DNA of 20,000 bases from Rhizaria sp. SCN 62-66 (taxonomy: Eukaryota). The stretch lies in assembly GCA_001724265.1 (NCBI GenBank), contig MEDY01000150.1, positions 57,652 to 77,651 on the forward strand. The letters are read 5' to 3'. Of the stretch, positions 1,094 through 19,394 are shown piece after piece. Position numbers and translations under genes: made by a program. The notes under the pieces are model-generated. The model had not been told where the DNA came from. It worked only from the letters and a program-made list of their open reading frames with translations, and made no database searches. Position 1 is the stretch's first letter, and every line of letters begins with the position of its first letter.

Positions 1094-2006
1094 CGCGAAA
1101 AAGAAGAGTCAACGGGGAGGAAGACAAGGCTGGCTACTCGACGAGGACAGTTCTGAAGGGGATTAGCAGGCTGGAGCGTCAACTGCGAGAGATGACGGTT
1201 GTTGTTGCTAAAAGGGTGACACTGGCGGCTTCTGGGCTTCTGTGACAACCGCCTGAGACAGGGTGCGGCGCGGAAGCGGAAGCTGTAGGGGCGAATCAGA
1301 TAGTTATTGTGTAAACAGACAAGGCAAAATGAGCGGTTGAAAGGGTGCGAGGAGGTGGAGTCGGCTAATTGAGGAAACGCAATGAACGGTGGGGAATTAT
1401 AAGGCCTACGTCGGCCTGGTTGAAATGGGTTAATATTACAACCGTTAAAAATCCATCATTTGCGTGGTAGTAGATATAAACCTCGCAAGGGCACTGTAGA
1501 GCGACGAAACTTGGTTGGTGCGCAACGATTTCGAAGGAGGCATCCCGCCAACATTCGGAGTGCGCGTCGAGAGTCACAGTCCAAGTGTCTTCAAAATACA
1601 ATTATAAATAGAGTACAAATGCAAGCGCATTTAACGGGCAGTAACTATACGTTATCATGAGAACGCGTGTGTTATGCCAGCAGCATGGTCTAAAATGAGC
1701 CCTCCTCTCACCAACTCGTCATCGAACCGATATCACTCAGAAAAACGCAGAAACATATGTTTTAGTTGGAATACACGCCGTCAACAAAATCATAGACCGC
1801 CAGAGCCATGTATAGTGATAGAATAAACTGATTGATTTTATTATTTTGCGTTTTTTCTTGCTTAATTGTTTCTTATGGCATACATTCTTACTAAGATATC
1901 ATTCATCAAGGATCTTCAGCAAGAAGCGCCAACTGTACAGCCAGCCGACGCTCTGCCGAAGCCCGTTCACTCAGCTCCCTCCAACAGCGCTCTGTACAGC
2001 GCAGAC

Positions 2007-2965
2007 TTACGCGTCCTCGACCATGGCAGCGGGCTGCGCAGCGGCCTCAGCATCGAGGTCCTCCTGTGCGATGGCGTCAACGTACTCGCGCACGTCGTCA
2101 TCCTCGAGAACAGTGAACACGGTGTCCTTGCCCACATAGGCGATCTGCAGCCCCTCGGCGGTGAGCTTGTCCTGCGCGGCGCCCTTGAGCGAGCGCACGG
2201 CGTGCAGCACGGCCTCGCGCAGCCCCGTGCCAGCGGCGGGCGCGGAGAAGGCGTCGATGTGCTTCTCGAGGTACGTCTTGGCGGCCTGCGAGCGAGCGCC
2301 GATGGCCTGGGCGCGGAACTCCCACACGTCGCCGGACGGCGAGGTCTCAAACAGGTGCGGGCCCGTGAAGTCGTAGCCGGCAACGAGGAGCCCCACGCCC
2401 GCGGGGCGCTTCTCGGAGCGCTGGGTGTAGACCTGGTTCTTGTCGCCGAGGGAGCGGACGAGGCGGCCGATGGGGACCGGGGCCTCGTAGCGCCACTTCT
2501 CGTCGATGCACTCGTGGCGGAGGAAGTCGCACTGCGCAGCGCCGTCGGGGATAAGGCCCGAGACGGCGGCGCCGACGTGATCGTCGAGGCGGGTGATCTT
2601 GCGCGTGTACGAGGCCAGCTCGGACTCAGCGCGGCGCAGAGCCGCGAGGACAACGAAGTCGCCAGAGACCAGGCCCACGCACGCGCTGCCGTGAGTCACA
2701 GCGGCGCAGGCGTACTCAACCTAAGATAGACAAAGATAGTGGCAACAATTTGCAAAAGAATTCATGACAAAACGATAACAAGGTGGGCGTATCAAGACGT
2801 TAAAGAGGATTGTGGACGGTGGGTGGTCAGGACAGAACGAGTCGTGAGATCAGATGAAAATACGTGGGAATAGAGTCCTCGACAATAAGATCAAAATCGT
2901 ACCTGATAAAGGCGCCCCGCAGGGTTGAACGTAGTCACGTCCGTGTCGTATTGATCGCGAGACAT
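2007..2965 (-). CDS. PSMA1: 20S proteasome subunit alpha-6 (PSMA1/PRE5 type), 2 exons: 2965-2903 and 2720-2007, 258 aa
   Basis: Exon 1 MSRDQYDTDVTTFNPAGRLYQ (alpha-subunit N-terminal signature) splices in phase 0 to VEYACAAVTHGSACVGL...ALRRAESELASY...GVGLLVAGYDFTGPHLFETSPSG...AIGARSQAAKTYLEK. The SELA and ARSQxAxTYLE motifs point to alpha-6. Confidence 0.93.
2721..2902 (-). other. Spliceosomal intron of PSMA1 (182 nt, phase 0)
   Basis: CAG|GTACGA ... TCTATCTTAG|GTT; removing it joins the conserved LYQ-VEYA. Confidence 0.93.
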
Positions 2966-3465
2966 TTAGCACAGGCACAACTTTCAGATGAGCCTTCGAG
3001 TCTACATCAGACTCATCTCGCTGCAACGGTGTGAAATAATCGTTTGTGGTGGATCGGCAAAAGTTAGGCCGCGACGCACAAAACATCAAGGATTTCGTCG
3101 GGATAACTGTCGTAAAATAAAACAAAAACATTTTGCTAGAGTAGCTTCAGTCGCGATTTTGGATCAAGTGATAAAGTTATTCGTGTATTGAGTTAAACAT
3201 AATGATTGTGAGCGCGCGGAAGACTGGAGGGTGAGCACTGATGGGCAGCAAACGGCTGTCCCTTCGGCACAACCTGGCTCACGCGCAGCAGACGCAGGGC
3301 AGACGCGACCGCAGCGCTGCAGCAGAGACCCGTAGCAGCGCCGTCGCCGCGAGTACCGAAGTGCCGGAAGCGAGAGCAACGGCGTCGTTCATGCATTGAC
3401 AAACGGAGCGATTGCTGCCAGCCCCGACACAGCCTCAGATCTGCGCCCGTTGGCGGCCGGGGCAC

Positions 3466-3901
3466 TTAGTGCGACTCCTTCCAGACCTTGAGGTCCTTGA
3501 TGAGCTCGGGGGCGGCGGTGACCTTGTGGCGCTGGAGCAGGCCGACGAGGGCGTCGTCGGAGGTCTGCTGTTGCTCGGGGTGGCCCATGCGCTTAAGCAG
3601 CGCCTTGAGCATCTCACGCTCCTGCTTGTTGATGAAGTCGCGCTCAGCCGCGGACTCCTCCTTCTTGAAGCGGTCGGACATGACGCGCTGGGAGACCTGT
3701 GGTGGGTGGATGGGGACAAAGCAAAAGCAGCAAAGGGAAGAGCAAAAGGGTGAGGTGATGAATCACGACGGGAGGCTTGGGTCAGGCAAAGGCAGGTTTC
3801 GGGAAAGGGAAAGGGTAAAGAGAGATGGGACGTACCATGACGGGGGCGGCGGCAATGCGGGGAGCGACCTTAACAATGGCGGACTGGAAGCGGGAAAGCA
3901 T
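3466..3901 (-). CDS. Mitochondrial F1Fo-ATPase inhibitor (IF1)-like protein, 2 exons: 3901-3836 and 3696-3466, 98 aa
   Basis: Spliced product MLSRFQSAIVKVAPRIAAAPVM|VSQRVMSDRFKKEESAAERDFINKQEREMLKALLKRM...ALVGLLQRHKVTAAPELIKDLKVWKESH. The N-terminus is basic and free of acidic residues, like a presequence. FKKEExAAExxFxxKQERExLxxL resembles the IF1 inhibitory helix. Codon bias is strongly GC3. Confidence 0.75.
3697..3835 (-). other. Spliceosomal intron of the IF1-like gene (139 nt, phase 0)
   Basis: ATG|GTACGT ... CCACCACAG|GTC with a C/T-rich interior. Confidence 0.88.
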
Positions 3902-4448
3902 CTATACGTGGCGAAGCAGGCAGCACCCAGATAGGGCGAGAGTGGGAGGTGAGTGAGGTGACGAGTTGGAGACGATACAAATCACGCGAGATCTCGCCAA
4001 AAACGGACGCAAGAAGCGCTGCAAGAAATAACACACAGCTGCTCACACCATGAATCATTCCGAAAATAAAAAACTACTGCTAACGAATGGCCGCAAGAGG
4101 TGCATCGAGCTCTGCAAAGTGGACATCTCAAGATCAGCCCACAGCCCCATGCCCGTCTGTGTCCCAGTCAAAATCAAGCCGCAGAAGGATCGACCGAGCA
4201 GACCAAACTCACAGCAAGCTCAGGGCTTTGTGCAAATAAAGTGAGATATAGCGGTAATACATAGTAGTTGAGGAAGTAATAGTGATAGAGCATAAAGTGA
4301 ATAGATGGATGTGTTTGAAATTTGGTTTTTTTATTCTCTTCCTGATCATCCTGCTCCGAGTGAGACGTATTCGGGGCAGAACTGCGCGTCAAATTAGGCG
4401 GCGACGTGCGACATTTGTGTTGGGGGGTGGGGGACGCCCGCGTTCAAC

Positions 4449-5099
4449 TTACTCCTGGACGGGGAAGGAGAACTCAACCGCGGAGCGGGTGAGGCGGTTG
4501 TAGACGGCGGCGAAGGACTTGAGCTTGTCCTCGGTCTCCTTAGCATCCTTCTTGTCGACGAAGACCTTAAGGAGCTTGGACTGGTCAGCACGCACGCGGG
4601 TGCGCTTGCCGACGATGGAGGAGGGGAAGACAATGTCGTCGAGGATGGCGGCGTGCACGGCAGTGAGGGTGCGCGACTGGGGGCGAGCGATGCCCTTGTA
4701 CTGAGCCATCTGTGATGATGTAGAGAGGAGCAAGCAAGAGCAAAGCAAGTGCGAGTGCGCACAGATGAGAAGGGTGAGCGCGGGATGAGAATAGCAAAGC
4801 AAGACAGGTGCGGATGGGGATGTAGCTGAGATAAGGGTGAAGAGAAAGATGTGGAGAAACGTACCTCGTTGGTGAGGATGGTGCGCTGGGCAATGAAGAC
4901 GAAGTGGGTGTTGGCGAACTTCTTCTCGAGCTCGCGGGAGAGGCGGGGCTGGATCGACCTCCTTGGCCGCGCAGAAGTGAAGGGCCTTGAGGCCCGCGAG
5001 CTCAGGGGTCTCCTGGAGCTCGACCATAGCCTTAGCAACGCTCTCCTCGAAAGAGGAGACGGCCTTGCCGTTGGCCTTAACAACCTTGTTAGTCGCCAT
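4449..5099 (-). CDS. RPS7: 40S ribosomal protein S7 (eS7), exons 5099-4865 and 4709-4449; as assembled, exon 1 has an internal deletion and frameshift at 4952-4955
   Basis: MATNKVVKANGKAVSSFEESVAKAMVELQ...AAKEVD in one frame, then IQPRLSRELEKKFANTHFVFIAQRTIL in another; exon 2 is MAQYKGIARPQSRTLTAVHAAILDDIVFPSSIVGKRTRV...FSFPVQE*. RELEKKF, FIAQRxIL, SRTLTAVH and IVGKR are hallmark eS7 motifs. Confidence 0.93.
   Translation of the reverse strand: MATNKVVKANGKAVSSFEESVAKAMVELQETPELAGLKALHFCAAKEVDPAPPLPRAREEVRQHPLRLHCPAHHPHQRGTFLHIFLFTLISATSPSAPVLLCYSHPALTLLICAHSHLLCSCLLLSTSSQMAQYKGIARPQSRTLTAVHAAILDDIVFPSSIVGKRTRVRADQSKLLKVFVDKKDAKETEDKLKSFAAVYNRLTRSAVEFSFPVQE
4710..4864 (-). other. Spliceosomal intron of RPS7 (155 nt, phase 0)
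   Basis: GAG|GTACGT ... CATCACAG|ATG, pyrimidine-rich; contains CTTGCTTTGCT twice. Confidence 0.9.
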
Positions 5100-5197
5100 T
5101 AGGAAGAGAGGCTACAAAGCAATAGGAACGTCGGAAGCAAAAGAGAGTATGGAAAGCAGTGAGCATGGGCATGGACGCAACAGACACGAAAGCGGGG

Positions 5198-5279
5198 GTC
5201 CTCAGACCGATTGCGAGGGTGGCCAGAGTGAGCTCTGTTGTCCCGGTCAACAAGTGAGCACAACTTCGCATCACAAAAC
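5198..5279 (-). ncRNA. Candidate box C/D snoRNA upstream of RPS7
   Basis: Minus strand reads gtttt-GTGATGC ... CTGA-ggac. Box C-like motif starts at 5274, box D is at 5205-5202 (73-nt span), and the flanks could form a short terminal stem. Box C has one mismatch and no target was identified. Confidence 0.3.
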
Positions 5280-6369
5280 TAGGGTAACGAAGGCGTCTGG
5301 CAATAACGCAAACCCACTGTAGGATAGAATAATTCCTGTTTTATCATAGCAAATCATCCCTAGACGCATAGTCCGCACGCCGGATCCATAAAGACTGTCC
5401 TCAATCCGCGCCTCGACCTCACACACTGGGCCCGACTGATGCCCGCGGTGCGGCGACTCGGCTAAGGGCCATCTAAGTACCCCAGAATGTATTTCCCCCT
5501 TTTCGCGAACCGGGTCCAGGACGAGCTGCCTCAAGCTATTATCACGGAAGGTTTTTAAAACAACTATATCGTCGGATGACACCATTTTTTAACTATGGGG
5601 ATGACACGAAGTGTACTATCATGGCAATTTATCACAACGTCTGGGTCGCGATATGAAAGCGGCCAAAGGGGGGGAAAACTCGACTGTTGGTCGACACAAC
5701 TATTGCATAACACATCTCTAATAGCTCCCTCAAAACGATTGGTGGACATACCTCTGAGAAGTCCGATCTGCGGAGCAAGTCTATTCCTGTTATATTTTTT
5801 CTCTTCAGTCCTGCATATTGCTGTCTTAGATCGATAATGTGGGTAATCACTGCTTGTGTCGTGTGAACAGGATTTGATGCTGTGTTAATCGTTCATCGTC
5901 ACCAACATCAGCTTCCGCCTCGCCTCGTTCGTTCCCATGATGTCGATTAACTGTGACGTCCACCCACCTTGCTCGTATCCGTCTCTCTTCCATGTTTGGC
6001 TGTGTCAACTGCAACTCGTGCTGCCTAGCAATCTTGCTCTCAATAAACTGAGCAACGTAGCAGATCATGTCGCACTTCATCAGTGATCTACTCATGCCAG
6101 TGCGCATCTATAGTTGGCAGATCGATTGAGCTGCTGATGTGTGTGTTAAGGTGTTGCTTGCGTTCCAAAACATCCAATAAACACACAATCGACAACAAAA
6201 CAGAAATGAGTGGCAATGTGCTTTGTAAGACAACATCTGTTGTACAACAGATCAAAGCAAAACAAAAATGTATTAATTCAATTAAACGTTGCTAGTAAGG
6301 ATACTATGTAACATAAGGTATATTGATCTTGACAATTTCTCCGGCACAAATGAAGTTTACGTCGTCCAA

Positions 6370-7825
6370 TCACCCGCGCGGCGGCGGAGGCGGCGCGAAG
6401 CCCTGTGCGCTGGCCCTGCTCGCCACGACGCCACCCATCGGCGGCGGCGGCGGCGGAGGCTGGAAATGCTGATGCGACTGTTGCTGCTGCTGCTGCTGGT
6501 GCACCGGGGGCTGCTGCGGGGGATACTGCGGCTGCTGAGACGGGTAACCGCCGCCATGCTGGTCCATCGGTTGCTGCGCAGCTCCAGTGTAGCCGTAAGC
6601 GGACACGCCATACTGAGGCGCCGGCAGCGAGGCAAACAGGCCTCCCGCGCCCGCTGCGCCCATCGCGCCTGCCGCGCCAACGGGGGCGACCGGGGCGCGG
6701 GCAGCACCGGCGGCGCCGTAGCCAGCACCGGCGGCGCCGTAGCCAGCGCTGTGACCCTGGCTGTGACCCTGGCTCTGGCCCTGACTATGACTCTGACCGT
6801 AGCTGTGGCTGAGGCTGTGGCCGTAGCCCTCGTGACTGGGACGGCCGAGGCTGCTGTAGCCTTGGTAGTCGTTGTAGCCGCCGCCGCCGCCGCCGTGGCC
6901 GTGGCCGTGGCCGTCGCTGGGCGGGGGACCGTAGCTGCCACGGTCACCGCTGGTATAGCCGCCCCCGCCGTGCTGCTGCTGATGTTGCTGGCTGGGATAG
7001 CCGCCTTGGCTGCTGTAGCCCTGTTGAGAGCCGCTGTACCCATGCTGCTGCTGCGGCGGCGGCGGGGGGTGTGAATGCGAATGTTGCGCGTTGTAGCGAG
7101 GCGCCATGCTGTCGTAGGGACCGTGGGCAGGAGGGGCACCGAGAGCAGCGACGGGAGGGGGCGGCGGCGGGCCACTGCTGCGAGGGTCGTAGTGAACGTG
7201 AGCAGGAGGGTGACCGTGAGCAGGAGGATGACCGTGAGCAGGAGGGTGGCCGTGAGCAGGAGCAGGGCCAGGACCGTGGCTCTGGCCCTGATTGTGGCTG
7301 CGAAGCGGAGCCGGCCCACTGTGGTAATGAGCGGGCCCACGGTCACCGCGGTCCCACTCGCGGTCACGGTCGCTCCGGTCGCGCTCACGGTCACCCGAGT
7401 GCCCACGGTCGCCCGAGTGCCCACGGTCACCAAGGTGCCCACGGTCACCGGGGTAGGCCCGGTCACCGGAGTAGCCACGGTCAATGCTGCGCCCGCGCTC
7501 ACTACTGCGGCCACGGTCATCGTCACGGCCACGGCCACGGTCACCGTGTTCGGCGCTGCTGCGGCCGCGGCCGTCGCCGCGGCTGTCGCCCGGGGGGCCG
7601 CCGGGGGGGCCGCCGGGGGGGCCGCGGTGGTCGGTCGGGCCCCGGGTAATCGCATGAGGGTTCTTGCTCGAACCAGAATGGCCGTGGCCGTGACTGGTAG
7701 AGTGACCGTGAGCAGCGTGCGCGGGAGTCGTGGAGTGACCGTGAGCAGCAGTGGTAGAGTGACCGTGAGCAGAAGTCTTCACCGCAGACCCGCCCCGCTT
7801 GCCATCGTTGTGATCCCTCTCTGGC

Positions 7826-7857
<32 letters not shown>

Positions 7858-9855
7858 CTCCTTGTCGTCACTCTGAGGGTGGCCTGAGCCAGCGGCGCCC
7901 TTCATAGCGCTGCCTCTGCCATGGCCCTTCTTGTTACTGTTGTTGTTATTGTAGTTGTTGCTGCCGTGCCCCTTTCTCGGTGTCTGCATAGTATTCGCGG
8001 CAGCAGCATTCGCAGCAGCGGCGGCAGCGGCCGCGGCGGCGGCATCAGCGTCTGCCCTGGTGAACACGACCGTGATCCCCGCATCGGCAGCCTCAGCCGC
8101 CACATCACCGCGCCCGGCCTTGCTGCCGGCCGCAACCGACGGCTCCTTATCCCACATCGCACCATCATCACCACCCCCACGGTCGCCTCCGCGCTCACGG
8201 TCACCGCCGCGCTCACGGTCGTTTTGCTGCGGTTTCCGCGGCGCATAAGTCCTGTGCACGTCCATGTTGGCTTTATACACGGCGTCTGTGCGCGGCAAAG
8301 TGCAGTCGCGCGCGCCGTGATCGCCACCGCACACAAAGCACACCGACAGCGCCGCCGCCAGCGCCGCCGGGGCGCGCAGCAGCGACACGGGCAGCGGCAG
8401 CGGCAGCGCGTTGAGGGGCGCGTTGTGCAGCGGCACGGGCGTGCCCGCGGCGGCCGCGACGGCCGAGACCGAGGCCAGCGCGCCCGCCGCGTAGCTAGGG
8501 TCGCCGCAGCCGACGCGGTCGATGCAGAACGACGGGTAGTAGGTCACGGCCGCGGGCGTCGGCAGCGCCGGGAGCGGGGAGCGGAGCAGTGCGGAGACCG
8601 CGGCGGCCTCGGCGGCGGCGGCGCGCTCGGCCACGGCCGCAGCGCGTGCTGAGGCGGCCGCTGCGACCTCAGCGCTGCCTGCGGCGTCCAGGTCGGCCTC
8701 AGTCGTGTTGCTGGTGGCGGAAGCGGCGGCGGCCAGCCGGGCGGCGCGGGCAGCGCGTTCGGCGAAGATGGCGGCGTTGGCGTGCAGTTGCTCAGTCGGC
8801 AGCGCAGCGGCGATGCGGGAAGCGAAGAGGTAGGCCCAGTCGTCCTCGAAAAGACCGGTGTATCCGTCGGCAACGCGCGCGGGTCGCGTGGCAACGGCGG
8901 GGTCGAAAGATGTGGCCAACAGGGCCAAGTCGGCTGTCGAAAGCGAGGACACCAAGGTTGCCAAACCGGCATCACCGTCGGCGTCCCCGGTGCCGCCGCC
9001 GCCGCCGCTGTGGCTGCCGCGGCCGCCGCGCGCGGGCCTGCTGTTGCTGTGCGCGTGCGGGAGCGGCGGGCAGCGGACGGCGTGCGCCTGTGCAGGCGAG
9101 AGGCCTAGGCGCGATATGAGCGCGGAGCGGCGGATGGCGTGCGCCGACTCGGCGGCCGAGATGAGGCGGGCGAAGGACCGGCGTGTGGCGTCAAGCGCGG
9201 GCGCGACAGCAGAAATGGAGCTCGAAGATGATTGCGCTGACTGCTGCTGCTGCTGTTGCTGCTGTTGCTGCTGTTGTTGTTGTTGTTGCGAGTGGCAGAA
9301 AGCGGCGAGCTCGAGCGCGGCGCGCGCGGCGGCGGGCAGCGCGGGCAGCATTGCAACCTCGGCGAGCGGGGCGACAGGTTGCGCGTGCGAGGACGAAACG
9401 TACGCCTCCGAGGCAGGCAGCGCATACGGCAGCGGACCAGCGTCTGCTGCCGCTGCGAGTGCATTCACGACGGCGCGTGGCTGCGTCGCGGAGCCGGCGG
9501 TCGCGAGCGAAGACAACGCGCGCAGAACACGCTGCGTCGCGGCGGTGGAGGACGGGGGCGATGGGACGGCCGCGGCGGCGAGCGGGGACTGCTTGGGCAC
9601 TGCGATTTCAAGCGCAGTGGCCGCTTTGGCGGCGGGCGCAGATGCGGACGATGCAGCTGTTGAGTGCTGCGCGCGGTCAGCGCCCGAGAGGGTAACCGAC
9701 GAGGCAGTGGCAGCGTGCGCACTAAACACTGAGAAGGGCCTCGTTGCAGCAGCAGCCGCAGTGGGCGCAGCGCGCGCAGCAGCGTTGGGCGCGGCGGGCG
9801 GCGGCGCGGAGAAGGAAGCCTCGTCTTCAACAGAGAAGAGGGCGTCGAACTCCAT
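6370..9855 (-). CDS. ZCCHC8-like zinc-knuckle protein (NEXT-complex scaffold-like) with large low-complexity regions, 1161 aa
   Basis: YYPSFCIDRVG resembles the ZCCHC8 FCLDxxG motif and is followed by the knuckle CFVCGGDHGARDCTLPR (ZCCHC8 type is CFNCG..H...DC..PR). Also polyQ, polyA, RD/RG repeats and a G/Y/Q/H/P-rich C-terminus. A PSP domain was not recognised. Confidence 0.6.
7196..7460 (-). repeat. Coding 18-nt tandem repeats (PPAHGH x3-4 at about 7196-7262; GDRGHS-type at about 7340-7460)
   Basis: Repeated plus-strand units gaccgtgagcaggagggt and gcccacggtcacccgagt. Confidence 0.8.
9241..9288 (-). repeat. CAA/CAG trinucleotide repeat encoding Q16
   Basis: A ctg/ttg run on the plus strand, in frame with the ZCCHC8-like ORF. 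Confidence 0.9.
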
Positions 9856-10194
9856 GTCTGGAAAGTGACCAAAGTCAAAAACAGTAGAAATATTGTTTTA
9901 GCGGCAAATAGAAAAAAAACCATACATGTGCAATTGTCACTATAAATTTTGATTTGACGACGAAGAAGAAGCACAGATCTATATTGAAGAGCAGTCCAAG
10001 TGGACTCACAGTCGGTCCGCGGCCGCCGGCGGGCCTGGATCGACCAGTGGCAAAAGTGCGGGTCATTAAACACTACACAGCGGTCGTCAACATCTGTCAT
10101 TTGACTGTGAACCACAATTTTACAATTGTCCAACGAACAATCTAGCTATTTTCGTTTTAAATTTTTTAATGACACTCATTCATAGCGCTGCATA
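9856..10194. promoter_or_regulatory. Divergent (strand-switch) intergenic region; probable bidirectional promoter
   Basis: 339 bp between head-to-head ATGs at 9855 (-) and 10195 (+). The flanks are AT-rich around a GC-rich core at about 10005-10045. Confidence 0.6.
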
Positions 10195-13100
10195 ATGAAT
10201 CCCGCGCAACGCTTTCCCAACGGCCGCACTCTCACCTTCGACCCAACCTTCCTATCTACCCTGCGCTCGCCCGTCATCCTTGCCCCCGCTGCCGCTCCCC
10301 TCCAGACCATGTTGCCCCGCACTGCCCCTCCCACGCTCGACGGGGCAGCGTCGAGCTTCGCCGCAGATGACGTCTCAGCGTCTGCGCTCGCGGCCCAAGT
10401 CAGCACCATGCCCTTGCTCCACACCGCGCCCGACGCCACGCGCGACCACCTCGCGCTCGTGGGCGCCGCCGTGTCGGCCGACCTCGTCGCCTCGGGGCTC
10501 GCCTCGGCGCGCCCGCGTCTCCGCGCCAGCGCGCAGGCGGCCGCGTTCCTCAGTTCTCCGCCCACCGCGCAGCTGGGCGCCTCCTCGTCGTCGGCCTCGG
10601 CGCTGGCCCTGGGCGTCGAGAGCGTCGCCGCGCACGCCGCCGAGACGCTGCTGCTCGCGCCCACGCGCGTCACGGCGCCGCACAAGGCCGCCGCGCCGCA
10701 CAGTGCCCCACTTGCGGCGACAGTCGGTGCGAGTCTCGCTTTCCCCTCGCTCGTGTCGCTGCTTGACGTCGGGCCATCCGTCGTCCCCGCGTTTCCTGCA
10801 CCGACCTCGTCCGCCTCGTCGTCGTCCCACGCGCACGCACACGCCGCGTGGCCCACGCAGCTGCCGCTGGCGACAGTCCCCGCGCCCGGCGCGCTGCTGC
10901 CGACGCCGCTCCCGCCCGCGGCCCAGCTGGCCGGCCCCCAGCGCGCCGCCGCAGACGCGCACGGCAACCTGCTTCTGCTCACGCCCGCCTCCGACGCCGC
11001 CGTGGCTGCGGCCGGGGCAGGCGCCAGCGCCAGCGCCAACGCCAGCGCCAGTGCGCACGCAGTGGCGGCGGCGCCCCGCACCCAGTCGCTGAAGCTCATT
11101 GACCTCAAGCGCGCCGCCGCTGCCTCCGCGGCCGCCGCCACCGCCACGCGCGCGTTCTCCCTCGCATCGAGCTCTAAGGCGGACTCAGGTGCGCTTGCAG
11201 CCGCTGCGGAGACTGCGGCCGCTGCGTCGCGCGCCGCCGAGGACGCCAACGTCACCCTCGAGCTCGTGCCCGCGCTGGCCGGCACCAGCTCCGGTCGCCA
11301 GAACGCAGCCGCCGCCTCTAACCGTGTCGGTTTGCCCGCGTACGCCTCGCGCGTCGCAGTCAACGCCGACTCGAGCTACGCCGTCGTCACCGCCACCGCG
11401 GCCCCGTCGGTCTCGCTCGCCCGCGCGCGCGCCGCCGCCGCCGCCTCCGCCGGCGCAAACGATCCCGCTGACGGCGACTGCGACGACGCTGCCGGTGCGC
11501 CATCGTTCGTGGACAAGATTCCCGACGCCGCCGCGCGCTGCCTCATCGCCGTCCGTCTGCCGAACGCCCAGACCGAGCTGCCGCTGCTGCGCGCGCGCGC
11601 CGTCGCGGCCGCGACCGCTGCGTCCGCAGCCGCCGCCTCGGATTCCGGCTCAGCCGCCGCTATCGCCGCGGCCGCCGCCATCGCCGCCGCTGCGGCCTCG
11701 GCGGCGGCGCGAGTGTCGTGCCCGGCCGTGCGCGTCGGCGGCGGCAACGCGGCCCTGCGCGCGGCGGGCGCGGTGCTGCAGGCGACCTTCCACCCGCTCT
11801 CGCCGTCGCACTTGTACGTGCTGTACGCGTCCGGCGTGCTGGCCCTGTTCAACCTCGCCAAGGACTGGGTCGTGCCAGAGCAGGTCTACGCGCTCCCGGC
11901 GCTGCCGCACCTGTTGCCCCCCGCGCAGAACGCCGCGGGCATTGCGCACAGCAGCACCGCGGGCACCGCGGTGGGCTCGGCCGCTGGCAGTGTCGTCGGC
12001 TCCCGCGCGCAGTCGCGCCGCCCGTCCCGCGACCTCACCGGGGAGTCCGCCGGCTCTGCGCCGGGCTCCATGGGCTCCAGCTCCAGCGCTGGCTCTAGCT
12101 CGAGCTGGTCCGGTGCTCGCGGCGGCAGCAGCGGGCTGACGCACGCGTCGCTCGCTCTGTCGCCGTCGGCGCTCTTCACGCAGCCCACGTTCGCGCGCAA
12201 CGCATCGGTGCTTTCCCCGTTTCCCCTCTACGGCGACTCGGCGCCCAGCTCCCCCGCTGCCGCGCTCACGCTTGCAAACAGCACTGGCGCGGCTGGCGGC
12301 GCCGCGGGGGGCGTGCAGTGGATCTCCTTCGCGCTCGGCGCCGTGACAACGCCGCTTTCGTGGGACGCTTTCACGGTGTACCTCCTCACCCAGACCGGCG
12401 TGGTCGCGGCGGTCAGCCCCGTTGTGCCGCGCGGCCTCGCGCTGCCCATCGCCGACGTAGCCGCGCTTCATGAGGCCACCGCGGCGCAGGCCCTTCTCGC
12501 AGACTCCTCTACCGCCAACTCTAACAACAGCAGCAGCAGCAGCAGCAGTGCGAGTGCGGGCATCGCCAGTACGCCGACGGCGAGCGCGAGCGCGAGTGCG
12601 GCCGTGACGTCGCTGGTGAGCCGGCGCCAGCTGTCGCTCGCGACACAGTGGTTGCAGGAGGTTTTCTCCCTGTGCCCGCTCTGGACCGCAGACGGCGTCC
12701 GCGCGCCACGCTCGCGGCCCCCGGCCTACAACGCCGCCGACGCGCTGTTCCCCGTTAAGCTTGACGCCGCGCCCGCCGCGGCGCCCGGGGCCACCGCCGC
12801 CGAGGCCGCTGCGGCCGCCGCGGAGGCCCGCTCGCTGCGCAGCTGCGGCTTCGTCGCTGCAGGGAGCCCGCGCACCGCCGCGTTGTCTGCGCTGGCCGTG
12901 CAGGTCGTGCGCCGTTCGCACACTGACAAGCACGCGCGCGAGCGCCCGACCGCCGCCGCGGCCGCCGCGACCGCTGCCGCCAGCGCCGCTGCCGCCGCAG
13001 CCGCCGCTGCAGCCACCGCGGCGGCCCGCGAGGGCTCCGGCACTGCCGCCGCCGCTGCGGCTGCCGCCGCAGCGTCCGCGGCCGCAGCCGCAGCCTCGGC

Positions 13101-16100
13101 GTCCTCCGCTGCGGCGGCCGCGGTCTCGGCCCCGCGCACAGTGTACTCGTCACTGACTGCGTTCCCGCGTGCCGCGCACCCGACGGCACTGCTGCGTACG
13201 GCGTTCGCAGGCGTGTTCCCGCTGGCTCCGCCCGCGGCCGACGCGGCGGCGACCGCGGCCGCGGCGGCCAGTTCTGCCGCCGTCGCCGCCGCGGCTGCGG
13301 GGGCCACCGACGCCGCCTCGGCCGCCGCCGCCGCCGCCAAGGCCGCCTCTGCGGCTGCTGCGGCCGCTGCGTCCGTGTCCGAGACCGACGGTGCCGACGG
13401 CGGCGACTCCGGTGACTCTGCCGCCCTCGACCTCGACAACGACGCTGAGGCCAGCGCAAGCGCGAGTGTCGGCTCGAGCAACAGCGCAGACGCGAGCTCT
13501 CGAGCCTCGACTAGCACGAGTGCGAACGTACTCGAGGCGAGCGCGCGTGTGCTGGCGCCCTGGACCGTGACCAGCGACGTGCTGGTCATGGTTCTGCCGA
13601 TGCTGCCGCTTTTCGACCCCGCCGGCCTCGCAGCGGCCGCCGCCACGCCCGCCGCGCTGCTGGTCCGCAGCAGCGGCAGCGGTACGAACACGCGCGCGGA
13701 GCCGTCCCCGGTCACCGGCCTCGACCTCGGCCTCACAGGCCTTGGCTTTAACGGCACGACGACGACGACTGCCCGCATCCGGTCCCCTGTGCCCGCGGCG
13801 TCCACGAGCGCGACCAGCCTCACTCCCGCCGCTGTCACCGCAACGAGCAGTCTCCTGCAGCTCCCGGGTCTGGCGCCGTCCCCGTCGGGCGACTCCGTCT
13901 CGGTCTCCACCAACGGCAACACCAACAGCGCCGTTGCTGTGGGCGGCGGCAGCCTCGCTGGCGAGGGTGACGGATGGGGCCAGCTCGCGCACCAGCAGCT
14001 CGTGCTCGCCTTCGACCGCGCGACCTTCCGTGTCCCGCTGCCGCCCCGCCACTGCTCTCGGTCCGCCTGGCAGGCGCTGCAGGCCGCCGCGCTCGTTGCT
14101 GCCGCCGACGCGCTCGCCGCCGCGGCCGCCGTATCCTCCCCGGCGGCCGCCGCCGACACCAGCGCGTCCGCAGCCTGGTCCTCGTCTTCGTCGTCGGCGG
14201 CGGCGGCGGCGGCAGCCTCTACCGCGCTTGCAGTCGCCGGCAGCAAGGGCAGGCCAGCGACAGCGGGCACTTCGCCGCTGGCCCCCGTCGAGGACCCTCT
14301 GGCGCCGCGCTTCACGTTGTTCGCGGGCGGCAGCGGTGCTGCGGCTCAGGCCGCGGCGGCCAACGCCGCTTCGAACGCCGCGCCCGCGCCTGCCCTGCGT
14401 TCGCTGCACTCCCTCGTCGCCGCTCACTCCTCTGACAGTGCCAGCAGCAGCAGTCAAGGCAACGGCAACGGCGCGGGGCTGAAGGTCGACGTGCGCGCCT
14501 CCACGGCCTCGCTGCCGTCCAGCTCCAGCAGCGGCAAGGCGCGTGCGGCGCCCCCGTCCCCGACGACGGCCGTGACGGCCGCAGCGGCGCGGTCCACGCT
14601 GCCGTTGACGCGCGCACACGCCGAGCTGGCCCGCCAGGCGCTTGCGCTGTACGTGCCGCAGCTGCGGCGCATGCAGCGGCGGCGCGCGGCCGTCGCGCTG
14701 GCCCCGCCGCAGCACCACAGCGCGCTGCACGCCGCGGGCGTGTACTTCGTCACGGTGCAGTACACGCTGCCCTCGCTCGCTGCGCTCGCCACGCGCGCGT
14801 CGCTGCGCAGGCTGCTCTCGACGCTGCCCGCGCTCGCGCCCGCGGCCGCGGCCGACACGGAGGCCGCTGTCTCCGCCGCCGCAGCCGCCGCAGCGGCGGT
14901 CGCCGCTGTGGCCAAGGCCGACTCGGGTGTCGGCGCTGCATACGCCGCCGACGCCGCCGTGACCGAGGCCGTCGTCGCCGCCGCCCGCGCCGCGCCCGCG
15001 TTTGCGCTCTTCATCGCTGCGCTCGCGCGCGTGCTCGCCTCGCCGCTAAGTGCCGCCGTTGCGTCCACGGCCACGATCGCCGCCAACGCCGCCTTCGTGC
15101 AGCTGCTGCCCCTTGTCTTCGCCGCCGCAGCTGCCTCCTCGAATACGAGCGCGAACGCCGGCTGCGCTAGCGCGAATGTGAACGCGCTGGGCTGGTCGCG
15201 CGCTGCGATCGCGCCCGGCCGCGGTCTCTCCTTCGCGCTGCAGCCCGGCAGCCACCGCGAGCTCGCGCGCCACTTGGCCTCGCTGTTCGAGACCAAGCGC
15301 ACGCGTTCCGACCTCCTGCTCGCCGCCTCCGCGCCCGGCACCGCAGACACCGCGGCCCCGCTTGCGCGCGCCGAGCCCGGCCGCGAGGGCGCCGTCTCCG
15401 CGCTGACGCTGGGCACCGCGCTCGTCGCCGCGCCGTTCCTCCCGGCCGCGCTGCTGCGGCTGCGCGGAGACGGCGCCGTCGTCGCCGCCGCGCTGCCCGC
15501 GCAGTTCTGCGACGCCGACGCCGTGCTGGCAGGGCTGCCGCACGTCAAGTCCATCGCCAACTCGGCCTCCGCGCTCGTCTCCGCCGCGAACTCCAAGCCC
15601 AACGCCATCATTTTCGGCGCTGGCGCCGGCTCTGCTGCTGCGGCGGCGACCAAGTCGTCGTTCGCCGAGAAGCTGGCCCAGGTCCGCGCGGCGCACGCAA
15701 AGGCCCTGCGCGCGGATCCCGCCGCGCTGGTGCCCGCACCCGTGGCCGCCGGCGCGCTGCGCGACGCGGGCGCTCTGTCGCTCGACGACTTCCTCTCGCG
15801 CTACGCTCCCGCCGGCTCCGTCGTCGCTGCGACCGGCGCCGCAACCGGCGCCGCTGCGGCCGGCAACAGCAAAAACCCGGTGGAGCTGCTGCGCGTGGCC
15901 GCGAAGGGCAAGGGTGCGAGCTTCACCCTGACGCAGGCCGACGAACTGACGCACTTGGCCGACGTGCGCCGCCGCGTCAACGCAATCGCGCTGCACTGCC
16001 AGGCCGCAGCCGTGGAGACGGCGGCGCGCGTACAGGCGGCGCGCGCGGCCGGCGCGGCGCAAGTGGCGCAGGAGCGCGCGCTGCGGGCCGTCGCCGCGCG

Positions 16101-16752
16101 CGTCGCCGGAGAACAAAAGGCCGCGGCGGCGCGGCTGGCGGAGCTCGAGCAGACCCAAAAGACACTCGCGGAGCGGCTCGCGCGGCTGCAGGGCGCCGTG
16201 GCGGGGAAGTTAAGCCGCCTCTCGCCCGCGGACCGGGAGTTCCAGGCGGTCGTGATGGCCGCGGAGGCCGAGCTTGCGCCGCTGCAGGCGCGGGCGGCGG
16301 CGGTGGCGTCGCTGGTTGACGGGCTTAAGGCCATGGTCGAAGGCACCCGCGACGGCAACAACGACGACGACGAGGACGGCGGCGACGCCGCTGCTGAGGA
16401 CACCGACGACGATGCTCAGTACCCCGCTGAAGAGGAGGACGGCGCCAGCAGCCGTGCACTGGTTGAGGTCGGCGCCGGCCGCCGCAGCGCCGTCGCGCGT
16501 CGTGACATCAACAACGCCGGAGCTGGGAAGAAGCGCGCCGGCGCTGTGGTGCGCCACGGCGAGGCTCTGCTGGCGAGCAAGCTGCGCGAGCTCGACGTCA
16601 ACGCGACGCAGCTGGCGGCGATGAAGATCCGCTACAACGCGCTCAAGGAGAAGCTTAAGCGCATCCCTGACTGCGACGACGATGACGATGACGAGATGGA
16701 GGCCGAGGCGGACGCTGAGGCTGCGGCGCGGGAGGAGGGCAAGGATGCGTGA
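10195..16752 (+). CDS. NUP88: Nucleoporin NUP88/Nup82-like, apparently single exon, 2185 aa with extensive Ala/Ser-rich insertions
   Basis: Beta-propeller motifs QATFHPLSPSHLYVLYASGVLALFNL and WDAFTVYLLTQTGVVAAVSPVVP match Nup88/Nup82 consensus blocks (Q..WHP.S..HL.VL; W..FT.Y.L...G....CP..P). A C-terminal coiled coil contains LSPADREF (consensus LS.AER.F), followed by an acidic tail. Confidence 0.8.
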   Translation: MNPAQRFPNGRTLTFDPTFLSTLRSPVILAPAAAPLQTMLPRTAPPTLDGAASSFAADDVSASALAAQVSTMPLLHTAPDATRDHLALVGAAVSADLVASGLASARPRLRASAQAAAFLSSPPTAQLGASSSSASALALGVESVAAHAAETLLLAPTRVTAPHKAAAPHSAPLAATVGASLAFPSLVSLLDVGPSVVPAFPAPTSSASSSSHAHAHAAWPTQLPLATVPAPGALLPTPLPPAAQLAGPQRAAADAHGNLLLLTPASDAAVAAAGAGASASANASASAHAVAAAPRTQSLKLIDLKRAAAASAAAATATRAFSLASSSKADSGALAAAAETAAAASRAAEDANVTLELVPALAGTSSGRQNAAAASNRVGLPAYASRVAVNADSSYAVVTATAAPSVSLARARAAAAASAGANDPADGDCDDAAGAPSFVDKIPDAAARCLIAVRLPNAQTELPLLRARAVAAATAASAAAASDSGSAAAIAAAAAIAAAAASAAARVSCPAVRVGGGNAALRAAGAVLQATFHPLSPSHLYVLYASGVLALFNLAKDWVVPEQVYALPALPHLLPPAQNAAGIAHSSTAGTAVGSAAGSVVGSRAQSRRPSRDLTGESAGSAPGSMGSSSSAGSSSSWSGARGGSSGLTHASLALSPSALFTQPTFARNASVLSPFPLYGDSAPSSPAAALTLANSTGAAGGAAGGVQWISFALGAVTTPLSWDAFTVYLLTQTGVVAAVSPVVPRGLALPIADVAALHEATAAQALLADSSTANSNNSSSSSSSASAGIASTPTASASASAAVTSLVSRRQLSLATQWLQEVFSLCPLWTADGVRAPRSRPPAYNAADALFPVKLDAAPAAAPGATAAEAAAAAAEARSLRSCGFVAAGSPRTAALSALAVQVVRRSHTDKHARERPTAAAAAATAAASAAAAAAAAAATAAAREGSGTAAAAAAAAAASAAAAAASASSAAAAAVSAPRTVYSSLTAFPRAAHPTALLRTAFAGVFPLAPPAADAAATAAAAASSAAVAAAAAGATDAASAAAAAAKAASAAAAAAASVSETDGADGGDSGDSAALDLDNDAEASASASVGSSNSADASSRASTSTSANVLEASARVLAPWTVTSDVLVMVLPMLPLFDPAGLAAAAATPAALLVRSSGSGTNTRAEPSPVTGLDLGLTGLGFNGTTTTTARIRSPVPAASTSATSLTPAAVTATSSLLQLPGLAPSPSGDSVSVSTNGNTNSAVAVGGGSLAGEGDGWGQLAHQQLVLAFDRATFRVPLPPRHCSRSAWQALQAAALVAAADALAAAAAVSSPAAAADTSASAAWSSSSSSAAAAAAASTALAVAGSKGRPATAGTSPLAPVEDPLAPRFTLFAGGSGAAAQAAAANAASNAAPAPALRSLHSLVAAHSSDSASSSSQGNGNGAGLKVDVRASTASLPSSSSSGKARAAPPSPTTAVTAAAARSTLPLTRAHAELARQALALYVPQLRRMQRRRAAVALAPPQHHSALHAAGVYFVTVQYTLPSLAALATRASLRRLLSTLPALAPAAAADTEAAVSAAAAAAAAVAAVAKADSGVGAAYAADAAVTEAVVAAARAAPAFALFIAALARVLASPLSAAVASTATIAANAAFVQLLPLVFAAAAASSNTSANAGCASANVNALGWSRAAIAPGRGLSFALQPGSHRELARHLASLFETKRTRSDLLLAASAPGTADTAAPLARAEPGREGAVSALTLGTALVAAPFLPAALLRLRGDGAVVAAALPAQFCDADAVLAGLPHVKSIANSASALVSAANSKPNAIIFGAGAGSAAAAATKSSFAEKLAQVRAAHAKALRADPAALVPAPVAAGALRDAGALSLDDFLSRYAPAGSVVAATGAATGAAAAGNSKNPVELLRVAAKGKGASFTLTQADELTHLADVRRRVNAIALHCQAAAVETAARVQAARAAGAAQVAQERALRAVAARVAGEQKAAAARLAELEQTQKTLAERLARLQGAVAGKLSRLSPADREFQAVVMAAEAELAPLQARAAAVASLVDGLKAMVEGTRDGNNDDDEDGGDAAAEDTDDDAQYPAEEEDGASSRALVEVGAGRRSAVARRDINNAGAGKKRAGAVVRHGEALLASKLRELDVNATQLAAMKIRYNALKEKLKRIPDCDDDDDDEMEAEADAEAAAREEGKDA

Positions 16753-17099
16753 ATGCTGAAAACAATGCGCTCTTGTGCTTGAATGCGTTGTGGTGCTCAG
16801 GCTCTGCACTGAGCACTAACTTAAACTTGGAACTGTTGCGAAGAGTGATCGAGATATATATACCGTAAGCCGCGGTCATCGTGATATGGCAGCGGTCTCA
16901 TTGCAGTTATACCAATACATATATTTTATTAAGTTTATTTTACGCGCATGGAATTGACAAGGACTTGAAATGCAGTCGAACGCGTGATTTAGTTATCGTT
17001 TTTGACTGGTGGCTGGACTGGACAGGTGCTCACAGTCACTTTGCCCAGCAACTGGTCGGCCCTTCTCTCTGCCCACAGTCGGCCGAGCGAACGGCCCGT

Positions 17100-17530
17100 T
17101 TATGTCGCTATATGTGCATCTGGTACCTGCATGAGTCTTTGTTATAGGTAGCATATGCAGGTATTTCCTTAGTGGCGAATTGCCTTCGCCACGCAACGAC
17201 GTTTCAGGTTACTTTGATATCCTCGAGGAGGAAAGACGTCACTCCCTTCGACCGCGCTGCAAAATCATCTTCTGATGGTGCTGGCAGTGGGCACTCGCGT
17301 CGGCGCGGCACCAACAGATACGCAAGGCCGGTGCATATAGCGCATCTACATGCATTGTGACCGGTCTTGCGCTCTCTGTCGGTTCGAAGAAGTTCGAATC
17401 GCGATTCCGAAAGACAGCCATTAAAGGTTCACTCGGCGACGAGCTCCCGGTCGAGTGTGCCCAGAAAGCAACGATTACTGCCATCATACGAACGTCAGTG
17501 ACCCATGCCTTCGAACTAATGATTATTGAC
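17100..17530 (+). ncRNA. Unidentified structured RNA element (ncRNA or structured leader/outron)
   Basis: At least six stems of 8-12 bp whose wobble positions are G-U on the plus strand; see findings. Confidence 0.4.
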
Positions 17531-17579
17531 ATCCTTTTATTTCCAAATGCTTTCTTTCTTTTCGCGCCCGACAGGAACT

Positions 17580-19394
17580 ATGGCAAGTTTGCGCTCAGAC
17601 CTTACTGACCAGGGTACGTCCCAAACCCCGACCTCTCTGACATCTCTATTCTTCTTCCTGACCCGTTCAACTATCTCCGCAACAGACCGTCGCTTGTTTC
17701 CCCGCTCACTCTTTTGCTGAATTTTCTTTCCTCGCCCCGTCACGTGCTATTTTGCCCTTCTGCCCCATTCAGACCTTGCCGCGGCCCAGGAGCAGGCCAT
17801 GGACGGCCAGTTCGAGGCCAAGGTCCTCTCCGCCGCGTCCAACCCGGCCTTCTGGGGCCCGCTCATCGCCCAGGGAGTGGTCGACGCCAAGCAGCGCGGC
17901 ATCCTCATTGACTGGCTCGTCGCCGCGCTTGAAGGCCACAACCAGACCGACTACCTCGAGGAGTCCGGCCCCCGCCTCGCCACCCTCATCGTCAACCTCC
18001 TCAAGTCCACCGCCTTCTCTTCCTCCCCCGACCAGGGCGACTTTAAGGCCTCCACCGTTGACGTCGCGCTCGCCGTGCTCTCCCTGCTCTTCCGTACGTC
18101 CTCTAACGTCGCCGACGACTCCCAGGTGCAGTCCCGCGCGGCCGTCTTCCGCACCATCGCGCTCACGGCCTGGGAGACCTCCTCCGCGCTGCCGGAGTTT
18201 CAGGCGCTCAACAAGCGCATCGCGGCTGAGTTCGACGCTGCTGCCGCGCGCTCCGCCGCCGCGCAAGCCGAACTTGAGATCACTGGCCACAAGGAGGAGG
18301 CCCAGCAGTTTGCGTCGTCGTCGTACGTCCGCCTCGAGCTCGCCGACCTCTCCACTCTCGGCCCGCTGCGCGACGACGACGTCTTCGGCGCTCTGCTCGA
18401 CATCCTCAACGCCGCCGACGCCGGCAAGCCCGCGTCGTCGGGGTACCAGCTGCGCAAGGCCGCGATGGCGCTGGCCACGATCACCGCGCGCGGCGTCCCC
18501 GGCACTCACCCCGTGTTCCGCCACGCGTTTCGCTACCTTCGCGCCGCCTCGCTCGCGCCGCAGACGCAGATCGTCGCCCTGCAGGCACTTAAGGCGCTGC
18601 TCAAGAACCGCGAGCTGCATGTGGCGTTTGAGGCCGAGCAGGTGACGTCTGCACTCGCCGCGATCCTCAAGAAGGACTCGAAGAACGCGCAGCCGCTCTA
18701 CCTGGCCGGCTTCTGCGTCTGGCTCCTCACCTTCAACCCCGCGATGGACTCGGTCGTGCACGCCAACGGCATCGTGGCCGCACTGACGGCGATCCTGCGC
18801 GTGGTGGTGCGCGAGAAGGTGGTGCGCATTTCGCTGGCGACGCTGGCGAACCTCATCGGCCGCGGTCACTTCACCGAGGAGATGGTCGGCGCCGACCTGC
18901 ACCGCCTCGCGCCGCAGCTCGCGCAGCGCAAGTGGAAGGACGAGGACATTGTCACCGACGTCAACGCGCTCGTCGAGGTGCTCACGCGCCGCATCAATGA
19001 GCTGTCGTCGTTCGAGCTTTACGCCGCCGAGCTCCAGGCCGGCGCGCTCCGCCGCTCGCCGGTGCACAACGAGAAGTTCTGGCGCTCCAACGCGCTCAAG
19101 TTTGAGGACAACAACTTTGTGCTGATCAAGTCGCTCATCGCGCAGCTCGACTCGGACCGTGAGGACTCGCTCGAGATGGCGTGCTATGACCTTGGCGAGT
19201 TCGCGCGCTTCCACCCCGACGGCAAGCGCGTCATCGCCAAGTTCGACGGCAAGACCAAGCTCATGGCGCTTATGACGCACCGTGACCCCGCGGTGGCCAA
19301 GGCCGCGCTGCTGGCCGTGCAGAAGGTGCTCGTGCTCAAGTGGGACCAGATGATCGGCGGCGCTTCGGGTGCCAAGGCCGTCGCCGCCAACTAA
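17580..19394 (+). CDS. ATP6V1H: V-type proton ATPase subunit H, 2 exons: 17580-17613 and 17773-19394, 551 aa
   Basis: REKVVRISLATLANL, KWKDEDI, LSSFELYAAELQAGALRRSPVHNEKFWRSNA, ACYDLGEFARFHPDGK and ALLAVQK are conserved subunit-H motifs. A short first exon MASLRSDLTDQ joins in phase 1 (G|AC). Confidence 0.95.
17614..17772 (+). other. Spliceosomal intron of ATP6V1H (159 nt, phase 1)
   Basis: CAGG|GTACGT ... CCCCATTCAG|AC, pyrimidine-rich; splicing keeps the frame into the 17799 ORF. Confidence 0.85.

Follow-up and report, generated by a model that had tools for sequence, protein, structure and literature searches.

Evidence for spliced-leader trans-splicing in an uncultured wastewater protist, probably a cercozoan

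Unpaired acceptors in the window and beyond

The window, i.e. the whole stretch of 20,000 nucleotides (nt) analysed here, lies on contig C150 (C150:57652-77651) of a eukaryotic assembly of 34.9 Mb in 714 contigs, and our subject is a set of unpaired 3' splice acceptors upstream of its seven genes, which very probably reflect spliced-leader (SL) trans-splicing. Pfam confirms four of the gene labels given in a preliminary description of the sequence, namely the MFS transporter (MFSD1), the proteasome alpha subunit (PSMA1), the ribosomal protein RPS7 (S7e) and V-ATPase subunit H (ATP6V1H). The IF1 label has a weak Pfam match below the cut-off (E 0.0018), the NUP88 label of a 2185-residue protein is unconfirmed (E 0.33), and the ZCCHC8 label of a 1161-residue protein has no Pfam match.

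A YAG (Y, pyrimidine) following an AG-free tract of 38 to 89 nt precedes all seven starts, at the places where the preliminary description had put it. The longest tract, 89 nt, ends in a TAG that abuts the ATG of the IF1-like gene (3902..3992, minus strand), and the next, 87 nt, in the TAG of RPS7 (5113-5112, within 5112..5200, minus), 12 nt before the ATG; both of these outron ends are also reached by RNA contigs, of run X1 for IF1 (to 3903) and of runs X3 and X1 for RPS7. The other five were recognised from sequence: PSMA1 has a CAG with an 84-nt tract and a CTAAC at -47 (3021..3106, minus), 55 nt from the ATG; the MFS transporter has a CAG with an 80-nt tract (1283..1364, minus), 189 nt from the ATG and the weakest of the seven; the ZCCHC8-like gene has a CAG with an 80-nt tract (9858..9939, minus), 2 nt from the ATG; the NUP88-like gene has a TAG with a 38-nt tract (10146..10185, plus), 9 nt from the ATG; and ATP6V1H has a CAG with a 74-nt tract and a CTAAT at -59 (17499..17574, plus), 5 nt from the ATG. 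The CTAAC and CTAAT motifs thus lie where they had been described, and the acceptors are indeed just upstream of the ATG in five genes (0, 2, 5, 9 and 12 nt), though not in PSMA1 and MFSD1. The 1161- and 2185-residue genes are divergent, and their two acceptors lie within 326 nt. Ten further YAGs stand between the MFSD1 acceptor and its ATG. The 5' untranslated region (UTR) predicted for PSMA1 (2966-3020, minus) holds two upstream ATGs that form a four-codon upstream open reading frame (ORF), and splicing to one further YAG, 36 nt from the start codon, would eliminate both; that YAG may be the acceptor in use.

In 1000 dinucleotide shuffles per gene, counting those with a site as close to the ATG and a tract as long, sites as good as the real ones arose in 0% for IF1, 0.2% for ZCCHC8-like, 0.3% for ATP6V1H, 0.4% for RPS7, 1.1% for PSMA1, 2.6% for NUP88-like and 5.4% for MFSD1, percentages that are optimistic given that the thresholds were taken from the observed sites. 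The MFSD1 site is not clearly above chance, and the other six are below 3%. All four cis introns of the window start with GTACG, as had been described: those of PSMA1 (2721..2902, minus, 182 nt) and the IF1-like gene (3697..3835, minus, 139 nt), with joints in X1, that of RPS7 (4710..4864, minus, 155 nt), with joints in X1, X3 and X4, and that of ATP6V1H (17614..17772, plus, 159 nt), deduced from sequence and reading frame. The GTACG introns with RNA joints are thus three. No sense-strand GTACG occurs within 400 nt upstream of any of the seven sites, in agreement with the preliminary description, and the weak donors that it had listed, at 9925 and as GTATTT at 17161, are present.

The same layout was surveyed in 408 kb, roughly 1.2% of the genome (130 kb from C3, 200 kb from C42 and the remainder of C150), with a small purpose-built gene finder that has no 5'UTR state. 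It gave 77 models of at least 100 codons; dropping three near an edge and ten with a first exon shorter than 40 nt left 64, which include five window genes, IF1 and PSMA1 having been merged by the finder. An acceptor-like site (YAG, at least 38 AG-free letters, at most 250 nt from the ATG) precedes 54 of the 64 predicted genes, compared with 34 in antisense, 34 of 62 in 3' flanks, 26 at 300 nt further up, and a mean of 39 and a maximum of 47 in shuffles. With a stricter definition (at least 60 AG-free letters, at most 100 nt from the ATG) the count is 29 of 64, and the corresponding controls are 6, 9, 9 and a shuffle mean of 7.6. The excess over background implies that about 51-65% of genes have a 5' acceptor, a figure that is a floor because some starts were mispredicted. 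Among the 227 predicted introns, 52 passed the filter for a confident internal set; all of these are shorter than 400 nt, 16 have donors other than GTACG, and 48 are no longer than 300 nt. At a distance of 65-300 nt upstream, a GTACG is present for 4 of the 54 5' sites and for 39 of these 48 internal acceptors (p 5e-15), the latter count being inflated for a reason given below. Ordinary 5'UTR introns, which the preliminary description had kept as an alternative, are thereby disfavoured genome-wide.

Similar layouts were seen elsewhere. A loose end of an X6 contig near window 5100, presumably from a relative, has a different sequence, with its CAG 12 nt from the start of RPS7; in a PSMA1 of 61% identity (L052/L053) a 79-nt AG-free tract leads up to a CAG, 126 nt from the start codon; and ubiquitin genes on other contigs have the same arrangement of 5' acceptors.

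A leader on RPS7 RNA and a family of candidate SL RNA genes

Part of window 1-6300 is present in six of the seven sequencing runs listed; these come from three studies, labelled wastewater, activated sludge and biofilm. We aligned to this part of the window, which covers four of the seven sites, contigs of the RNA-labelled runs X1, X3 and X4 and of the apparent DNA run X6; the runs outside the alignment were X5 (share 0.05), X7 (share 0.00) and X2 (same sample as X1). All RNA evidence thus consists of assembled contigs. The wastewater run X1 has no differences from the PSMA1 of the window over 859 nt.

RPS7 contigs of X1 and X3, from two different studies, match the genome as far as the A of the predicted AG (5113) and carry beyond it letters that are absent from the genome at that place. 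On the mRNA strand the X3 contig reads TTTTAGTTTA and then AG, and its ten-letter tail agrees at 10 of 10 positions with the exon end of the element described below and at 4 of 10 with the genomic outron. The X1 tail consists of six letters followed by adapter; four of the six, those beside the junction, match the SL exon and agree with X3, and mis-annealing of a random hexamer could account for the two outer mismatches. Upstream of 5113 there is no X1 coverage, and no cis donor fitting the RPS7 tail was found in the window. The non-genomic leader that the preliminary description had proposed to look for at these AGs is therefore seen at RPS7 in RNA contigs of two studies. At the IF1-like gene the alignment of a spliced X1 contig likewise ends on the A of the predicted AG (3903), and four letters of the contig remain beyond it. 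The RPS7 contig of X4 ends at 5048, short of the acceptor, the PSMA1 RNA contig ends near 2953, before its acceptor, and the MFS acceptor is likewise unreached by RNA contigs. X3 contigs over 1357-1713, upstream of that acceptor, may be outron, read-through or DNA and were not used as evidence. A metagenome scan with the PSMA1 alignment gave 22 loci, none with a leader, the two closest (84%) being unspliced DNA lacking a 5' end, and protein searches gave no leader-extended N-termini.

A genome search with the X3 version of the tail gave 33 matches, nine of which belong to one repeated element, whose AAG is immediately followed by GTATGA. BLAST raised this to ten copies, 87-100% alike, on ten contigs (C8, C11, C30, C43, C79, C374, C584, C644, C657 and C659), none of them C150. 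The proposal that a leader followed by GT should be found elsewhere in the genome thus holds, in the form of a multicopy element whose exon end equals the X3 tail. Nine of the ten copies have the exact exon end and one is a variant; one further fragment lacks the exon. For six of the ten the nearest contig end is no more than about 1.1 kb away, and the true copy number may for this reason exceed ten. The copy at G000:C374:431-546, with its donor at 466, illustrates the anatomy: about 115 nt, of which a leader exon of probably about 35 nt ends in TTTTAGTTTAAG and is followed by the GTATGA donor. The start of the RNA probably lies near C374:431, since the spacing from a GTGAGT motif is as in U1 and U2, which begin 58 nt after it; in six SL copies checked the motif is exact at the matching distance in two and has a one-letter variant in three. 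Downstream stands a box similar to the one found at U1, U2 and the U4-like gene described at the end. The element folds into four hairpins, one in the leader exon and three more (z = -4.4, 1 of 200 shuffles as stable), and across copies 95.8% of cells are paired, with two pairs showing a double change. Its exon ends in WWG (W, A or T) and contains TTT, as SL exons nearly always do according to passages of PMC3795323; passages of PMC7986045 describe an exon, GT, stem-loops and an Sm site as the expected anatomy of an SL gene, and an AG at the target. No Rfam family matches the element at E≤10. These features identify it as what appears to be a previously unrecognised family of SL RNA genes.

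Several other searches were tried and rejected. The X1-type leader end (GTTTTAAG plus GT) gave 14 matches and no SL-like gene; a loose tail pattern gave 186, too many to be informative; a small nuclear RNA (snRNA) 3'-box pattern gave five, U1, U2 and three other small-RNA candidates, none an SL; and a promoter-plus-donor pattern gave three, again no SL. Derivation of the SL from this genome's U1 or U2 was rejected, with no similarity found (848 and 414 of 1000 shuffles). A covariance model run over 35 fetched sequences recovered known SL copies only, and diverged variants elsewhere in the genome may have been missed. SL genes were found in none of the five neighbourhoods of 5S rRNA genes, and the SL exon in no viral and no prokaryote contigs (0 and 0). 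In the copy at L142 (G000:C584:100-270) the core is inverted with respect to its upstream motif and 3' hairpin, through a local inversion or a misassembly.

Probable trans-splicing and its rivals

The RPS7 tail, the gene family and the genome-wide unpaired acceptors support the trans-splicing first proposed for this sequence, and we consider it very likely that the organism uses SL trans-splicing alongside cis-splicing, with outrons on most genes and about ten dispersed SL genes. These snRNA-type genes would be transcribed into an SL RNA of about 115 nt, presumably bound by Sm proteins, and most protein genes would be transcribed singly, each with a short outron to be discarded. The 3' part of the outron would comprise a branch region, a pyrimidine tract free of AG and the YAG, and the outron would contain no donor; the SL RNA would provide the 5' splice site instead of a cis donor, and the spliceosome would join the SL exon to the YAG, releasing the outron as a Y-branch, as expected from established spliceosome biology. 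The mRNAs would then all gain the same, presumably capped, 5' end from the leader, at RPS7 and probably also at the other six sites and most genes elsewhere. Trans-splicing would also remove upstream ATGs and leave a short 5'UTR, and such a clean-up of the 5' end may be one of its effects because within 200 nt the outron side holds one to three ATGs in all seven genes, whereas the 5'UTR after the AG holds none in six of the seven. The resolution of operons is not its main use, because only 27 of 77 neighbouring gene pairs in the survey stretches share a strand; there is no operon signal, and none of the RNA contigs of the aligned runs bridges two genes in window 1-6300.

A number of observations weigh against this account. 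Among the four genes of the aligned stretch, leader letters were found on one, RPS7, in assembled contigs. The X3 contig that carries them apparently has variants at 5057/5079 shared with the DNA run X6, and is probably from a sister strain, and X3 also contains unspliced, DNA-like contigs. The X1 tail differs from the SL at two of six letters, and none of the 14 genome matches to GTTTTAAG|GT is an SL copy ending in that version. The Sm site that the preliminary description had expected did not turn up in canonical form (A-T4-6-G) downstream of the SL donor; the best candidate, TATATCTG, stands between hairpins two and three, one letter off the site of the U4-like gene, and pairs with the donor according to the fold prediction. 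The copies covary little: 12 of 500 shuffles score as high, and a single diverged copy supplies both double changes. The gene models of the survey are self-made and partly wrong, as the merger of IF1 and PSMA1 shows, and the gene finder favours GTACG donors, which inflates the internal-intron figure of 39 of 48.

Some of these points would also fit SL splicing that is real but restricted to a subset of genes, several sites, chiefly those of MFSD1 and PSMA1, being mere pyrimidine-rich flanks. The background at the loose threshold is high (26-39 of 64), the MFSD1 site is not clearly better than chance, the PSMA1 site leaves two upstream ATGs, leader letters are on RPS7 only, and there is the precedent of Paulinella, in which SL was detected on about 20% of genes (passages of PMC9311404). 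We regard this as unlikely, given that the excess over background implies a floor of 51-65% of genes, that the IF1 contig also ends at its AG, and that the ubiquitin genes of other contigs are arranged in the same way. The earlier claim that most mRNAs are trans-spliced holds on RNA for RPS7, and its "most" is extrapolated from DNA statistics (about half to two-thirds). Ordinary 5'UTR introns with donors weaker than GTACG are considerably less probable still: donors other than GTACG do occur in 16 of 52 confident internal introns, and weak GT sites lie upstream of all seven genes, but a strong donor is found upstream of 3 of the 54 5' sites and of 44 of the 48 internal ones, X1 has no coverage upstream of 5113, and the RPS7 tail equals no exon end in the window and yet matches genes on other contigs, which, if the tail is genuine, refutes such an intron for RPS7. 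It is formally conceivable that RPS7 is cis-spliced to an SL gene located past the end of the contig, but this would span three genes and more than 14 kb, whereas confident introns stay below 400 nt.

The remaining rival, to which we give hardly any weight, holds that the ten-copy element is something else, e.g. a divergent U5 or a small repeat, and that the tail stems from a chimeric assembly or from a retrocopy. U5 was found in the assembly neither by its model nor by four patterns, the element is U5-sized, its exon contains CCTTTTA, which we take to be close to U5 loop I, and DNA contigs of X6 that share the variants apparently break off near 5114 too. Against this, no Rfam family, U5 (RF00020) included, gives a match at E≤10; in the fold CCTTTTA is base-paired, with no closing stem beside it; U1, U2 and U6 were found in one copy each; a GT donor on one side and a predicted acceptor on the other meet exactly at the junction; and a retrocopy bearing the leader would itself need trans-splicing. 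The fold and the Rfam model together rule out U5 itself.

The host, known SL systems and other genes of the assembly

The host is probably a helkesean or a nearby cercozoan. In an RPS7 tree of 22 rows, the window row, 44% filled, falls in a clade with Guttulinopsis vulgaris (SH-aLRT 98), whose members have a short loop and signature residues in common; two environmental rows and a dinoflagellate-labelled transcriptome row, taken for a contaminant, are also in it. In a quick PSMA1 tree the window's protein groups with a sequence of that transcriptome, and the clade includes no named cercozoan. Passages of PMC6133090 place Guttulinopsis in Helkesea, which branched off early within Monadofilosa. 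The 18S proved uninformative as a taxonomic marker for the host, the single small-subunit (SSU) rRNA gene of the assembly (L001, G000:C706:4459-8903; 4.4 kb, AT-rich, with long insertions) being unlike the visible start of sainouroid 18S; it looks to us heterolobosean and is probably from another organism, perhaps a contaminant. Several of its insertions resemble group I introns, one with a possible ORF. No polyubiquitin gene, sought as a rhizarian marker junction, was among the 12 ubiquitin loci examined. Ubiquitin occurs as monomers that start with Met-Ser-Met-Gln-Ile-Phe (L002, L005 and L006, on C3, C168 and C182), the extra initial Met-Ser being reminiscent of the rhizarian ubiquitin insertion, and C3 carries three such monomers in tandem, which each have a separate acceptor upstream and end in a three-residue tail.

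Within Rhizaria, SL trans-splicing has been described in photosynthetic Paulinella and was reported as not found in Bigelowiella, Plasmodiophora and Reticulomyxa (passages of Matsuo et al., PMC6053224). According to passages of Gabr et al. (PMC9311404), the SL was detected on 20% of Paulinella genes, no SL genes were found in the heterotrophic P. ovalis, a diverged leader there being allowed for, and a de novo origin that aided plastid integration was proposed. The literature matches listed, whose coverage leaves out subscription journals and bioRxiv supplements, include no SL splicing in sainouroids or in any cercozoan besides Paulinella; the passages of PMC9399869, PMC5304391 and 10.1101/2025.10.07.680570 hold nothing on it in other cercozoans, and those of the Rosculus vilicus genome paper (PMC10770858) mention no transcriptome. 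What is new here is an SL RNA family in a lineage for which we found no SL splicing described, the process itself being known elsewhere.

As far as passages of PMC6053224 go, P. micropora and P. chromatophora too have multicopy SL genes, coexisting cis introns, an SL RNA with no canonical Sm site (a site that is common and not universal), a leader of 33 nt compared with about 35 nt here, and a leader hairpin tipped by GGA and TAATCC upstream of a donor starting GTAT, the tip standing 10 nt before the donor in Paulinella and 12 nt here. The stem arms, the intron part and the last leader letters (AAG here, CTG there) differ, as do the copy number (about 10 here, 43+14 to 151 in Paulinella, in the same partial sources) and the 3' end (an snRNA-type 3' box here, a poly(A) signal there). 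The share of genes trans-spliced is probably larger here than in Paulinella, and, unlike in Paulinella, no sign of a chromatophore turned up, although no search was aimed at one. The local alignment score of our leader with a 20-nt Paulinella motif was reached by 373 of 20000 shuffles; the shared hairpin tip occurred in 1 of 20000 shuffles and in 0.02-0.07% of random hairpins, for a motif chosen after being seen. This tip is a hint of common origin. It is possible, though we think it rather doubtful, that the two leaders are homologous, SL splicing having arisen deep in Cercozoa before the chromatophore, persisting on most genes of a heterotrophic early branch that has no operons, and being inherited by Paulinella.

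Other mixed systems, in nematodes, tunicates, cnidarians, flatworms and cryptomonads, share with this organism the outron, the unpaired acceptor, an exon with WWG and TTT, the GT donor, stem-loops, dispersed multicopy genes and a U1 kept for cis introns (passages of PMC3795323 and PMC7986045). Unlike them, the organism studied here has no Rfam match, no canonical Sm motif, no operon-like strand runs (27/77), and SL genes that lie apart from the five 5S copies. Kinetoplastids and dinoflagellates have the leader on most or all mRNAs (in part from passages of PMC7986045), as is probable on most genes here, whereas here there are no long polycistronic arrays, cis introns are many, SL genes are dispersed and the sequence is unrelated.

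Passages of PMC7986045 treat it as an open question whether SL splicing has had many origins or is ancient and has frequently been lost. A second, apparently distant heterotrophic cercozoan with its own SL RNA family would be either another independent origin or a case of shared inheritance, and existing cercozoan transcriptomes can decide between the two. SL splicing in this branch may be older and more widespread than one described case suggested; if the hairpin loop was inherited in common, this would undercut the de novo, plastid-integration proposal put forward for Paulinella (passages of PMC9311404). The leader also offers a primer specific to this lineage, with which full-length mRNAs of an uncultured protist from wastewater could be obtained, and in annotating this genome 5' acceptors should be treated as ends of outrons, not as missed introns.

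Some further observations concern the assembly. The apparent frameshift of RPS7 at window 4953/4954 (minus) is an assembly deletion: 68 nt missing there are present in X1 and X4 RNA contigs, and loose ends of X3 and of the DNA run X6 also point to them. The C3 ubiquitin genes show assembly collapses similar to that of RPS7. An X6 DNA contig over window 2402-4477 has 43 differences in 321 nt of PSMA1, 7 in 905 nt of IF1-RPS7, and skips 585 nt between, which makes it a divergent allele, a sister strain or a chimera. There are five dispersed 5S rRNA copies (L042-L046), four of them truncated or internally deleted, and no assembled tandem array.

Other small-RNA genes were noted. The U1 5' end (L048, C280) and the U6 ACAGAGA box (L173, C54) are canonical, though cis donors are mostly GTACG and the SL donor is GTATG. 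A gene of about 240 nt with an snRNA-type upstream motif and 3' box (L074, G000:C262 ~17100-17350, minus) contains TAACCCTAA, which we take to be the template expected for TTAGGG telomeres, making it a candidate telomerase RNA; it has no Rfam match. Two more genes with the same flanks, L071 (G000:C120 ~49900) and L075 (G000:C84 ~63150), also lack an Rfam match and are, by motifs that we recognise in them, presumably U3-like and U4-like candidates, respectively. The U4-like candidate adjoins an RNase MRP gene.

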